A stretch of 64,000 bases of DNA from a phage. Positions 34,983 through 38,264 of this stretch are shown here, one piece after another. Every line of letters starts with the position of its first letter. The stretch's first letter is position 1. The notes below the pieces were generated by a model, which worked only from the letters and a program-made list of their open reading frames with translations, did no database searches and was not told the DNA's origin. Where the stretch lies: NCBI GenBank assembly GCA_009015555.1, contig GCA_009015555.1_3613.1; one strand, 5' to 3'. The position numbers and the translations under genes are program-made.

Positions 34983-37900
34983 ATGGCACAATATGAAGAT
35001 AAGGTCGTGGAAGTTCTGGTGACTCTCCCGGAACCGTCTGCGAGCACCTCTGGTGGTTCTGGTGCGCCTTTCACGGGCATCGAAACCCAAGACACCGTAT
35101 CCACCACACTGATTGGTGATGGTACTCAATCCTCCCCTCTGCAAGCAAACATCAACATCTCCCGTCGTTCAGGAAACCGCCTCCAAGTGGTGAGCACCTC
35201 CAGTGAGCAGGGTCTGTATGTTGCTGGCTCCGACACCAAGGTGTCTGCTAAGGATGGGAACACCGTAACTTACATCTCCGCCCAAGATGCGGCTAACGCT
35301 GGCAACCCGGCCCTGGAAGGTGTATACTCTGATCCGGTGAACGTGTCAACCACGTCACCGAAGAAGACTCTGGAAATTAAGGCTGATCCTACCGGGAAAG
35401 CCAAGACCCAAATCGACGTGATCGTTGATCCAGATTCCATGAACGCCCTGAAGGTAGGCACTGCTGGCCTGAGCGTTCCTGTTTCTGTGGCTCAAGACAA
35501 CACTCTGGAAATCCGCCAGGGTGCTCTGTACGTCCGCCCGCAAGAGACTAAAATCTCCCAAGACCCAAACAACAAGATTCAAGTCAAGTCTGACGGGATT
35601 TACGTTGACACTGTAAAAGGTGATAAAGGTGATACCGGGGCAACTGGCCCGGAAGGCCCTCAAGGCCCACAGGGAGACCCGGGTCCTCAAGGTCCGCAAG
35701 GCCCGCAGGGCGATAAGGGTGATAAAGGTGACACCGGGGACGTAGGACCAGCGGGGGCAACTGGCCCGGCAGGGGCACAGGGTGCTCGTGGCCCAGAAGG
35801 TCCGAAAGGCCCGGCTGGTATTGGTATCAACGTCATCGATCAGCTTGACGAAGTTTCTCAGCTTCCGGCTGTTGCGGAAATGGAACTGGGCGACACTTAC
35901 GTTATTGGACAGAATTTCTGGACCGTTGTCAACGAAAACAACGTGAAGCAGTGGAAGGACATCGGTAACTTCGCGGGGCCTGAAGGTCTGTCTGCTTATG
36001 AAGTTGCAGAAGGCGCGGGCTTCGTTGGTACTGTTGATGAGTGGCTGGAATCCCTGAAAGGGGCTGACGGTATCGGTCTGCAAATTCTTGGTTCCTTCCC
36101 TGACCCGTCCTATCTGCCTGATGAAGGTAACAAGCCGGGTGACTGCTACATCATCCAAGACATGATGTATGTGTGGACAGGTGATGAAGATGGGTGGCAG
36201 ACTGTAGGTCAGATTGGCCCAGAGGGTAAATCTGCGTATCAGGTATGGCTGGCTAACGGTCACACCGGATCTCAGGTTGACTTTCTGAACTCCCTGGTTG
36301 GCCCACAAGGACCGAAAGGTGATAAAGGCGACAAAGGTGATACGGGTGCTGACGGTACTAACGCCAACGCCATCAACCTCTTGGGTAAAGTCGCAGACGA
36401 AGCGAGCCTCCCGGCTGGCGCGGATGCAGGCGATGCCTACCTGATCGGAACTAGCGTTTGGGTCTCCACTGGCAATGACAACTGGGAAAACCTCGGTGCC
36501 TTCCAAGGCCCTAAAGGTGATCAGGGGGATGTCGGCCCTGCTGGCCCGAAAGGCGACAAGGGGGACGCAGGTGACGTAGGCAAAGACAACTACGCATTGG
36601 CGGTAGAGAACGGGTTCCAAGGTTCCCTGAGCGACTACCTGGCATCTCTCAAAGGTGCGAAGGGCGACACTGGCCCGACTGGTCCGCGTGGTCTTACTGG
36701 TCCGCAGGGTGTGAAAGGTGACGCAGGGGAAGGTCTTGCGATCCTCGGATCAAAAGCTGATCCTTCAGAACTACCTTCCAATCCAGTAACTGGTGATGCG
36801 TGGCTGATCGGAGAAGACCTGTACATCTTCAACGGCACTGCTTGGGAGAATGCAGGCCCTGTCCGTGGTCCGAAAGGTGACACCGGAGCCACTGGCCCGG
36901 CTGGAGCTAAGGGTGACAAGGGTGACCAAGGCGAGAAAGGCGACAAGGGTGACCAAGGTGATGTCGGCCCGGCTGGCCCGGAAGGTCCGCAGGGGACTGG
37001 TCTGACGCCGAAAGGTTCTGTTCCTACAGTAGCAGATCTTCCTGACCAAGACAACACCAAAGGCGACTTCTGGGCTGTAGAGGAAGATGGCAATGGTTAC
37101 GCTTGGGATGGGTTGCAGTGGGTTGTTACTGGCCTGACTCGCGGCCCGCAAGGCGAGAAAGGCGACAAGGGCGACAAAGGGGATAAAGGTGATCCGGGGG
37201 ATACTGGTGCCACAGGCGCAGGTGTTATTCCGAAGGGAACTGTAACCTCTGCTGCGACCCTGCCTCCTACCGGGAACACCGTCGGTGATTACTACGTCAC
37301 TGAGGATACTGGGACCGGATACTCTTGGAACGGGACAACCTGGGTTGACTTGGGAGTTGTGCGTGGACCGCAAGGACCGCAGGGCGACAAAGGTGATACC
37401 GGAGACCAAGGTCCGCAAGGTGTGAAAGGTGACACTGGTGCTACAGGCCCTCAAGGCCCGCAAGGTGACATCGGCCCGGGCGTTGAGATCATGGGTAAAC
37501 TCAACAGCACCTCAGAACTGCCTTCAACCGGGCAACTGGGTCAGGGTTACCTGATTGACGGCGACTTCTGGGGATGGACTGGCTCTGCCTACGAAAACCT
37601 TGGACGTATCCAAGGCCCGGTTGGTCCTACTGGTCCTACTGGTGACCCAGGCCCTACGGGTCCGCAGGGTGTCAAGGGTGATAAGGGTGATCAAGGTTCC
37701 TTGTGGATCGTGTTCGACCATGACCCGGGTCCTGCTGATGGTCGTGTAGGTGACTACTTCCTTAACTCCTCAACGTTGCAGTTCTTCCGCAAGACGAACG
37801 CAACCACTTGGGCACCGATGGGTTACATGGGTGGCGGTAACGTTTACGATTCCCCGAAAGACGGCAAGCAGTACGCTCGTATCGACGGGGATTGGGAACT

Positions 37901-38264
37901 GGTCGAAGTTCTGGAAGCGCCTCAAGACAACGGCTACTACGTCCGTGCGAACGGTGCGTGGCAGAAACTGGATCGCTACGACCTGCGTGTCATGTCCGCA
38001 ACTGGCGCACTGGATGCTTCTGTATCCAACGTGTTCACCGTTGACGGAACCACGTCTAAGGCAATCACCATCTCCAACCTGCCAGCGGGTCGTGCGATGA
38101 CTGTGGTTGTTAAGTTCCTCGGTAAAGGTGGGTCCATGACTTGGCCTTCTCCGATGGCATGGTCTAACGGCACCCAGCCAGCACTTGGTACTACCCGTAC
38201 CATCCTGACGTTCTTCTGGGACGGCACGGACCTGACTGGTGTTCAGGCAATGACTGTAGACTAA
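34983..38264 (+). CDS. Large collagen-like (Gly-X-Y) repeat fibre protein with seven tandem ~45-aa modules
   Basis: Multiple runs of [19 protein letters not shown]-type triplets alternating with LP...GD.Y.IG...W...G..WENLG modules; start taken at MAQYEDK (ATG 34983, RBS GGAGA). Confidence 0.7.

Follow-up and report, generated by a model that had tools for sequence, protein, structure and literature searches.

The long open reading frame (ORF) that begins at position 34983 of a 64,000-nucleotide stretch of phage DNA (assembly GCA_009015555.1, contig GCA_009015555.1_3613.1; hereafter the window) nearly certainly encodes a segmented collagen-like virion fibre, and the first 15 residues of this protein resemble the strand, called S4, that tail sheath subunits of the same type of phage contribute to a hinge with their neighbours. 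The explanation that we prefer for the whole, and to which we would give a little better than an even chance, is that of a trimeric, segmented collagen-like virion fibre anchored by mimicry of the sheath S4 strand. The gene and its collagen repeats are already known (existing annotations read "collagen triple helix repeat protein" or "tail fiber"). In the literature that we searched, no paper recognises the N-terminus of this fibre as a sheath S4 strand, and the anchoring of a fibre by an S4 mimic, which is what the sequence suggests, is apparently unreported.

The window is a CR3-like Certrevirus genome: the 5 kb surrounding the fibre gene are 98.7% identical in DNA sequence to Cronobacter phage CR3 and 84-95% identical to other Certrevirus phages (φTE, CB7 and PcCB7V among them). 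The original prediction placed the ORF correctly, from the ATG at 34983 to the stop codon ending at 38264 on the plus strand, and counted the stop codon in its 1,094 residues; the product has 1,093. It matches the phrog_3904 profile ("tail fiber protein") with 1279.6 bits, residues 19-1092 covering profile positions 64-1085 of 1086.

The likeness between the fibre N-terminus and the start of the protein encoded at 43084 was noticed in the original prediction, which took the latter for a sheath candidate and proposed either a shared attachment or assembly segment, or an error in one of the two role assignments. The error can be excluded: the 43084 protein (473 aa) is structurally proven to be the sheath by its match to PDB 9cb9_A, which is the φTE sheath chain, and to four more entries (E=1e-298), and homologues of the fibre are found in virions, as described below. 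Residues 1-15 of the fibre and the sheath start MAEYQDKVVDVEVSL are identical at 10 and similar at 14 of the 15 positions (BLASTP of the pair, E=4e-5); at position 12, the fibre has Leu and the sheath Glu. The similarity is confined to these residues and the fibre has no sheath PHROG or PDB match, so that we do not regard it as a sheath paralogue; it is without the D1, D2 and D4 fold.

A segment of 15 residues that is rich in valine could resemble another by chance, or through a composition typical of β-strands. When the arm (residues 2-15) was compared with all 80,026 14-mers of the six-frame translated window, however, the sheath start scored 46 and the best unrelated site 26; an exponential fit to the tail of the scores gives a per-site P of ~6e-9, or ~2e-6 expected among 300 protein N-termini. 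Furthermore, both copies are exactly N-terminal, and all related phages with the fibre show the same pattern. The scan statistics and this recurrence refute a chance origin, whose probability we consider negligible. The similarity is therefore significant in alignment statistics, and homologues of the protein are present in virions by mass spectrometry, whereas the original prediction would have been given up had both turned out otherwise.

The identity of the shared segment follows from the φTE sheath structure, in which neighbouring subunits are joined by a four-stranded hinge sheet. Strands S1 (D407-P413) and S2 (I427-V436) of this sheet come from one sheath subunit, S3 (Y443-V451, the C-terminus) from a second, head-proximal one, and S4 is the N-terminal strand E3-L15 of a third; rotation of S4 allows the subunits to pivot in contraction (PMC11972413). 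The arm coincides exactly with S4, and the shared attachment or assembly segment of the original prediction is thus this handshake strand. In the fibre, the S4 signature Y-x-D-K-V-V-x-V-x-V stands at the terminus of the chain and adjoins a flexible segment.

It might still be argued that the 15 residues reflect an expression signal (translation initiation or codon context) or a recent exchange of DNA, given that fibre and sheath are both abundant late structural proteins and that a Shine-Dalgarno-like GGAG/GAGG lies just 5' of the ATG in both genes. However, the regions upstream of the two start codons do not align, and the two DNA copies of the arm are ~70% identical, with changes that are mostly synonymous or conservative. 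This indicates that the constraint acts on the peptide, rather than on regulatory DNA or RNA, and that the two copies do not result from recent gene conversion. Moreover, the peptide motif persists between genera with genes that otherwise share 30-60% identity, and fibre and sheath are the sole such pair in the window, no further late gene carrying the motif. We therefore consider this alternative largely refuted and very improbable.

Fibre and sheath genes were paired in ten GenBank phages and in further IMG/VR contigs. The opening of every paired fibre fits Y-x-D-K-V-V-[EN]-[VA]-x-[VL]-x-[LAV], and the proline after it is invariant; the paired sheaths open with Y-x-D-K-[VP]-V-[DE]-V-x-V-x-L. 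The motif Y-x-D-K-V-V-x-V stands at the fibre start in at least five diverged lineages of Vequintavirinae, the loci being those of Certrevirus, SSBI34, W70/UPEC06, Kashira/ABPH49 and the Seunaviruses 4MG/GAP31/FENT2/Av-05 (for instance YNDKVVEAFVT in W70 and UPEC06, YNDKVVNAELI/L in 4MG, GAP31 and FENT2, and YKDKVVNAEVI in Av-05). The positions that are fixed in the sheath S4 strand (Y, D, K, V, V, V, V, L) are also fixed in the fibres, and those that vary do so in both; one difference is systematic, motif position 9 being hydrophobic in most fibres (L, L, F, I) and E, T, V or Q in the sheaths. Between Certrevirus and Seunavirus, the whole N-terminal domain of the fibre is ~30-40% identical, and invariant columns of its alignment make up 6 of the first 16 positions versus 32 of 215 overall. 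At each locus examined, the motif was found at the fibre start and the sheath start only; rV5 and a phi92-like phage have it in the sheath, and have neither the fibre cassette nor a second motif site. No compensatory change between fibre arm and sheath arm is visible, the motif being too conserved for covariation to be seen, and the one divergent fibre arm (YDDIVVEV, in P0134) is on contigs that stop short of the sheath gene.

A scan of IMG/VR for [EQD]YxD[KI]VV[EN][VA] returned 105 stretches, 12 of them in fibre N-terminal domains; the other 93 could include sheath genes or other users of the strand. A match of "Salmonella phage 41" (KR296695.1, UNVERIFIED) to sheath residues 4-37 was ignored, the record being oddly annotated: it holds short fragments of the sheath N-terminus and of the fibre under implausible names (botulinum neurotoxin, leukocidin), and looks like a badly assembled or annotated Seunavirus-like genome.

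The other end of the protein has a much wider distribution. An exhaustive search with the C-terminal 186 residues gave matches to 749 cluster representatives (E≤1e-10 for 248), which are mostly the C-termini of proteins of 800-1500 aa with the same organisation of collagen runs, beads and the "SAYE" modules described below. Among 40 members fetched, an S4-like start occurs only in the Vequintavirinae type (P0065, P0004, P0066, P0068, P0134), and most of the other complete N-termini have a different start of ~35 aa, "M..KIS.L…L.G.E.iPvv..G.nyr…". Since relatives with the same C-terminus in other groups of phages carry a different N-terminus, arm and shaft appear to be a swappable, lineage-specific anchor; judging from these sequences, they behave as the attachment module of a widespread fibre body, as would be expected if the anchor has to match the virion. 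The search thus reveals a large metagenomic family of collagen-bead fibres of modular build, in which the C-terminal nucleation domain and the partner protein are conserved and the N-terminal anchors can be exchanged.

That a protein other than the sheath may dock by copying one of its strands has a structural precedent in the same virion type, because the C-terminal extension of the φTE tail terminator replaces S3 and S4: it supplies both strands in the first hinge sheet and, in the second, S4 (PMC11972413). This extension contains a stretch of the form Y-x-D-x-[IV]-x-x-V, which reads VYHDAIAQVCMAT in the window, VYNDKIVSVCLE in the IMG/VR relative L019 (~17450) and TYIDTIVTVNEK in W70 (L008); the L019 version is a closer variant than that of the window and scores as a third S4-like site in the scan. 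From its sequence, we infer that this stretch is the part of the terminator that lies in the S4 position. The fibre arm is a much closer copy of S4. The extension is found in some genera only, the terminator measuring 235-241 aa in Certrevirus, 219 in W70, 192-193 in SSBI34 and Kashira, 176 in Seunavirus and 183 in rV5. Terminator and fibre are thus alike in being non-sheath virion proteins with a Y-x-D-x-[IV]-x-x-V strand, but the terminator, a cap protein that forms a ring, has the mimic at its C-terminus and the fibre at its N-terminus, and docking has been seen structurally for the terminator whereas it is deduced from the sequence for the fibre. By analogy, the fibre would work most like a combination of a foldon-nucleated collagen fibre with a terminator-type hinge-strand mimic.

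The prediction of a fibre-type virion protein agrees with proteomic data, since homologues of this protein have been detected in virions by mass spectrometry: CB7_10 with 39 unique peptides and 46% coverage in CB7 (PMC7344957), and W70_131 with 2032 spectra, the highest spectrum count in the W70 virion (PMC11370258). Per kDa, the W70 spectra amount to 15.8 for the fibre, 6.1 for the sheath, 3.1 for the tape measure and 9-11 for the baseplate fibres, values that are too non-linear to give copy numbers; the fibre count per kDa is in the range of the baseplate fibres.

Both the collagen-like character and the seven tandem modules of ~45 aa with the predicted consensus were recovered. Eight Gly-X-Y runs of 23, 7, 9, 9, 15, 9, 13 and 10 triplets (95 triplets, 285 residues) correspond to ~81 nm of collagen at 0.286 nm per residue; Pfam Collagen (PF01391) matches four stretches with E=4.4e-32 and 110 bits against a cut-off of 27.2, and the X positions are mainly Asp or Pro, the Y positions mainly Lys, Gln or Thr. 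The seven modules, of 44-54 aa, occupy residues 282-335, 364-415, 461-508, 585-628, 674-720, 748-794 and 834-877 (nt 35826-37613), and the limits of the array, put roughly at 35800-37700 in the original prediction, can be refined to 35826-37703. A second type of module had escaped it, namely three "SAYE..GF.G....WL.SLKG" units (residues 336-363, 416-439 and 536-557); each module had been said to be followed by a Gly-X-Y run, which does not hold for modules 1 and 2, where a SAYE module comes next instead of a long run. Duplication of the modules, also predicted, is apparent in the protein, but calling it a repetition at the DNA level was an overstatement: the copies are 20-36% identical to the first one, and Tandem Repeats Finder and a repeat finder detect no module-level repeat in the DNA, only the 9-nt periodicity of the collagen triplets. 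The duplications are therefore old. The number of copies still differs between phages, homologous fibres having 585, 815, 875, 960, 1092-1099 and 1266 aa.

Pfam, NCBIfam and PDB sequence searches gave nothing significant for the N-terminal domain, the ~45-aa module or the SAYE module. In the PDB, no match was found outside the collagen and foldon parts, and neither the N-terminal domain nor the full-length protein retrieved a solved phage chain; by tblastn, the N-terminal domain matches the "tail fiber repeat family protein" of phage Av-05. Scanned alone, the C-terminus matches Pfam Fibritin_C over two stretches (25.0 bits with a cut-off of 21, E=2e-5; 19.4 bits, below this cut-off, for the whole protein), and a PDB search gives weak matches to foldon-tagged fusions. 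A monomer model of this region by AlphaFold2 (AF2), based on 28 homologues, has a predicted local distance difference test score (pLDDT) of 86 and no predicted helices: the eighth module is modelled as a four-stranded sheet (pLDDT >93), the two hairpins with moderate confidence, which can be ascribed to modelling a proposed trimeric unit as a monomer, and the last ~95 residues as a confident β-sandwich. The comparison list for this region comprises the tailspike depolymerase Solidus gp83 (8.0), the proximal subunit of the KP1 long tail fibre (7.2), the N-terminal part of CBA120 TSP4 (6.8), the Pa223 capsid spike (6.2), a gp9-type baseplate protein (5.5) and the trimerisation domains of collagen XV and XVIII (4.6 and 3.9). 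With this model in hand, we read the C-terminal domain as a probable generic domain for fibre end and chain registration in a trimer. Two metagenomic relatives, P0067 and P0076, have ~10 or more tandem foldon-like units ("EAPxDGKxYxRKxGxWxEL") before the terminal β-sandwich, versus two here. Two others, P0131 and P0170, repeat a unit like the eighth module ("GxVGDWYxxTxxxxxYxKTxxxxWTLxGNIKG") 8-10 times; these are large proteins devoid of collagen, possibly host-specificity (J-like) tail proteins, and they show that use of the bead module is not restricted to collagen fibres.

In collagens and foldon-bearing proteins, a C-terminal trimerisation domain nucleates the zipping of triple helices from the C- towards the N-terminus. 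The Gly-X-Y runs and the foldon-like unit point to a homotrimeric triple helix in the present case, and we would propose the following arrangement. The C-terminal foldon-like hairpins and β-sandwich would nucleate three chains and set their register, and the collagen helices would zip from there towards the N-terminus, interrupted by small β-sheet modules, or beads, so as to give a flexible fibre resembling beads on a string. The N-terminal β-shaft would end in three flexible linkers, each with a 15-residue arm copying S4, and the arms would anchor the fibre to the tail by β-sheet augmentation, either of the sheath hinge sheet or of an equivalent surface. We would favour the neck-proximal rings as the docking site, because the gene is one of the head-neck module, because the C-terminal part resembles fibritin, and because strands of another protein are known to be accepted at the top of the sheath. 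As to size, the 81 nm of collagen plus the shaft, the eight beads and the end domain set a minimum that equals or exceeds the length of the tail, which is 102 nm in φTE by cryo-electron microscopy (PMC11972413) and ~122 nm in CR8 (PMC11659082) and CB7 (PMC7344957) by negative stain. A fibre at least as long as such a ~100-120-nm tail could, if anchored at the neck, reach the baseplate region.

Docking by S4 mimicry is, on the sequence evidence, plausible, with roughly equal chances of being right or wrong, and several observations weigh against it. In the C6 (six-fold averaged) maps of φTE, every hinge sheet is already four-stranded and a vacant S4 site is not evident; at the two top rings, three strands belong to the terminator, and at the bottom one the sheath initiator contributes strands. 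What is in surplus at the neck are the N-terminal S4 arms of ring 1, displaced and "sterically blocked" (PMC11972413). The φTE fibre, gp215, is unmodelled, and the φTE paper names neither collagen nor gp215 (PMC11972413); nor does any structure place the fibre, its N-terminal domain being without PDB match. The trimer and its direction of folding are drawn from general knowledge of collagens and foldons, and a location on the capsid is possible in view of the position of the gene in the head-neck module, beside that of the "Pagoda" capsid decoration. If the fibre does dock through its arms, it may replace S4 strands at a stoichiometry low enough to be hidden by C6 averaging, it may pair with the edge of a sheet or with the displaced ring-1 arms, or the arrangement may be another one in the genera whose terminator lacks an S4-like extension.

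The first serious competitor is a capsid fibre, whose arm would augment a β-sheet of the capsid or of a decoration protein, the likeness to S4 being generic or an ancestral borrowing. The gene lies between those of the major capsid protein and prohead-protease inhibitor on one side and the adaptor on the other, in the same cassette as a homologue of a hexamer-centre decoration; NCBI annotators name a small neighbour "head fiber protein"; the spectral counts of the fibre in W70 are high; and, again, the φTE tail and neck maps have no free S4 site (PMC11972413). However, the two Pagoda-type proteins of the same cassette use another N-terminus, which argues that the S4-type arm is not the capsid-binding element here. 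Moreover, conservation of the arm follows the sheath S4 profile position by position in at least five lineages, and the φTE capsid maps describe only densities of the major capsid protein, DEC and Pagoda (PMC11972413). We hold a capsid fibre to be unlikely.

Alternatively, the arm could act during assembly, by capping or competing at the growing ends of the sheath or by recruiting the fibre to nascent tails, with final attachment through the β-shaft to another protein. The S4 site is indeed the polymerisation interface of the sheath, and all such sites are filled in the mature, C6-averaged maps (PMC11972413). A candidate for the final position would be the third putative fibre density of φTE, unmodelled, which lies above the baseplate and is contacted by the long tail fibre where the latter bends towards the capsid; its identity is not stated in the text, which leaves this argument weaker, and the baseplate model includes short and long tail fibres, not gp215 (PMC11972413). 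Furthermore, a flexible linker ending in a strand is the typical design of a tether. To our knowledge, there is no evidence for an assembly-time role of this sort in any contractile system, and we give this alternative a similarly low chance. We thus return to anchoring by S4 mimicry as the better reading.

A stronger version of this proposal, that the fibre is wired into the contractile lattice, its arms occupying or pairing with the S4 hinge position and hence with the strand whose rotation drives contraction, is in our view possible but rather doubtful. If it were true, there would be a mechanical coupling between the fibre and a pull on it (by a rotating flagellum or by contact with the cell surface) or the contraction of the sheath, phages of the Vequintavirinae type would possess a sensor or whisker anchored to the sheath by mimicry of a subunit strand, and accessory anchoring via a copied handshake strand of the lattice might be wider in contractile injection systems. 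Docking by S4 mimicry as such, if correct, would already represent a new principle for anchoring accessory fibres on contractile tails, linking an external fibre to the pivot element of contraction, with relevance for attachment sensing by flagellotropic myophages and for add-on fibres on engineered phages, tailocins or extracellular contractile injection system particles. In any case, the S4 identity of the arm provides a concrete hypothesis for attachment of the fibre and a reason to re-inspect neck and baseplate maps without six-fold averaging.

Concerning function, the most defensible view, reached by analogy, is that of an accessory fibre of low-specificity adsorption or "whisker" type, which is likely, rather than of a specific receptor-binding protein. 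A baseplate receptor-binding tail fibre would be expected to have its gene in the baseplate module and a rapidly diverging distal domain. Here, the gene sits between capsid and adaptor genes, the baseplate module beginning past the tape-measure gene, and the distal domain is conserved: the C-terminal ~340 aa are 57% identical between Certrevirus phages (of Cronobacter and Pectobacterium) and Seunavirus phages (of Salmonella, E. coli and Enterobacter), which is above the value for the N-terminal domain. This gene position and C-terminal conservation do not fit a typical baseplate receptor-binding fibre, and such identity across phages of different hosts disfavours a host-specific receptor-binding role of the C-terminus. 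Certreviruses are flagellum-dependent (φTE and CR3, PMC7344957; CR8, shown with ΔflgK, PMC11659082). However, Seunaviruses with the same fibre are regarded as lipopolysaccharide-dependent (PMC7344957), which weakens any specific link to flagellotropism; as they share its C-terminus too, the idea of a flagellum-specific adhesin is not supported, though still conceivable, and the φTE authors favour the short tail fibres for this role (PMC11972413).

T4 fibritin (wac) has an α-helical coiled-coil shaft and attaches to the neck proteins gp13 and gp14. The two proteins are alike in having a gene outside the baseplate fibre cluster and a plausible role as whiskers and, putatively, in a trimeric build with a C-terminal foldon-type hairpin unit (Fibritin_C). 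In our protein, however, collagen and β modules make up the shaft, there are two foldon-like units with a β-sandwich after them, and it is the sheath that the N-terminus mimics; since the shaft is not a coiled coil, we do not file it as a fibritin. The bacterial and prophage collagen-like proteins (Scl1/Scl2, BclA, Lcl and the EPclA-type fibres of E. coli prophages) have similar Gly-X-Y repeats, rich in Pro, Asp, Lys, Gln and Thr and free of hydroxyproline, and are nucleated by a non-collagen trimerisation domain, as is putatively the case here. The phage protein differs from them in having neither LPXTG anchor nor C1q-like head, in its eight collagen runs split by β modules, and in being a virion component; NCBIfam models give it 136 bits, far short of their cut-offs of 400-500. 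Finally, the collar whiskers of Bas63/Sf14, gp40 of XM1 and the neck fibres of A-1(L) are accessory fibres that emanate from the head-tail junction and contact the terminator and the top sheath rings, and those of A-1(L) are described as bead-chain-like, as the beaded form that we propose. Unlike the present fibre, they are held by Ig-like collar or neck rings dedicated to this purpose; mimicry of a sheath strand has not been reported for them, and they have no sequence relationship to it.

Table 1. Coordinates in the window of the fibre gene, its parts and the neighbouring genes mentioned in the text.
Feature	Position	Strand	Remarks
Segmented collagen-like virion fibre gene	34983..38264	+	1,093 aa; PHROG 3904; CR3 gp008 / φTE gp215 / CB7_10 / W70_131
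N-terminal arm, residues 1-15	34983..35027	+	sequence mimic of sheath hinge strand S4
Pro/Gly/Ser-rich linker, residues 16-29	35028..35069	+	starts with invariant Pro16; stretch after it variable and gap-rich in alignment
N-terminal β-shaft domain, residues 30-212	35070..35618	+	"N.L....GLYV" tail-fibre shaft repeats
First, longest collagen run, residues 213-281, 23 triplets	35619..35825	+	Pfam PF01391, best stretch 219-274
Array, residues 282-907: seven "LP..GDxYxV..W..G" and three "SAYE..WLxSLKG" modules, seven Gly-X-Y runs	35826..37703	+	
Degenerate eighth module, residues 908-952	37704..37838	+	predicted small four-stranded β-sheet; AF2 pLDDT 93-97
Two tandem foldon-like β-hairpins, residues 953-997	37839..37973	+	Pfam Fibritin_C; AF2 hairpins pLDDT 61-78
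C-terminal β-sandwich domain, residues 998-1093	37974..38261	+	
216-aa conserved partner	38306..38956	+	PHROG 4998; CB7_11 / W70_130; in CB7 and W70 virions (PMC7344957, PMC11370258)
103-aa small collagen-like protein	38958..39269	+	φTE gp217 ("Pagoda") counterpart by family and position; phrog_21621; CB7_12 similar to phiTE_217
456-aa second collagen-like protein (CR3 gp011)	39313..40683	+	Pagoda-type N-terminus; phrog_5073; phrog_21621 on residues 4-70
Portal	29428		then protease and scaffold region
Decoration protein	32720		
Major capsid protein	33189		
Prohead-protease-inhibitor-like gene	34308		
Adaptor, neck, head-completion and tail-terminator genes	40801-43022		
Tail terminator	42315..43022	+	matches φTE tail terminator PDB 9cc7_F, E=4e-157
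S4-like motif VYHDAIAQVCMAT, terminator residues 208-220 (C-terminal extension)	42936..42974	+	from sequence
Tail sheath gene	43084..44505	+	PDB 9cb9_A, E=1e-298; phrog_205
Sheath residues E3-L15, strand S4 of hinge sheet	43090..43128	+	template of the mimicry (PMC11972413)
Tube	44509		
Tape measure	45873		begins ~7.6 kb downstream of the fibre gene

The gene order around the fibre is that of a myophage head-neck-tail module (Table 1), in which the fibre gene opens a cassette (34983-40683) that, from the sequences, encodes collagen-like proteins with two different anchors. Some Vequintavirinae genera carry this cassette as an accessory insertion in their head-neck module: in Vequintavirus rV5 (rV5_ev168, L004) and in phi92/phAPEC8-like phages (ukendt, L013), the capsid-proximal genes and the adaptor gene have no such cassette between them, and Seunaviruses have the fibre, the partner and the "head fiber protein". 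The φTE authors consider gp217 (pTE217) to be the unmodelled "Pagoda" decoration of the capsid hexamer centre (PMC11972413). Gp217 and its homologues in the window resemble the fibre as collagen-like virion proteins of one cassette, all unmodelled in the φTE atlas, and differ from it by another N-terminal anchor, a much shorter length and, for gp217, the proposed binding to capsid hexamers. A CR3-type phage has a short (103 aa) and a long (456 aa) Pagoda-type protein, related to each other at E=1e-10 by BLASTP, partly through the collagen repeats, and CB7 has a single one of 164 aa.

The 216-aa partner encoded just after the fibre is modelled by AF2 with a pLDDT of 94.8 and has no sequence or fold match in the PDB. 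We considered it as a possible acceptor of the arm (for instance with a gp25- or hinge-like fold) and rejected this, given that its homologues follow fibres with other N-termini and that it is absent beside the Kashira fibre. In two unrelated metagenomic contigs (L028 and L029), a fibre with the same C-terminus and another N-terminus precedes a homologue of this protein (BLASTP E=4e-10 and 3e-9), and in Kashira-type phages the fibre keeps its S4-like arm without the 216-aa neighbour. The partner thus goes with the body or C-terminus of the fibre, and not with its anchor, and is probably, from this distribution, a fibre chaperone or a tip-associated protein of undescribed fold.

Some minor features of the locus deserve mention. 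An in-frame GTG at 34938, upstream of the ATG, was ruled out as the start of the fibre: homologues start at the ATG, and the IMG/VR relative L019 has a stop codon just upstream of it. Hairpins resembling intrinsic terminators lie 3' of 39269 (39275-39290) and of 40683 (40718-40739). Between the prohead-protease-inhibitor-like gene and the fibre start (34923-34982), there is a GC-rich hairpin without T-run, GGCCCCCGTGCGGGGCC, and the φTE record has a "terminator" annotated inside the region aligned with 34000-39000, which possibly corresponds to this hairpin.

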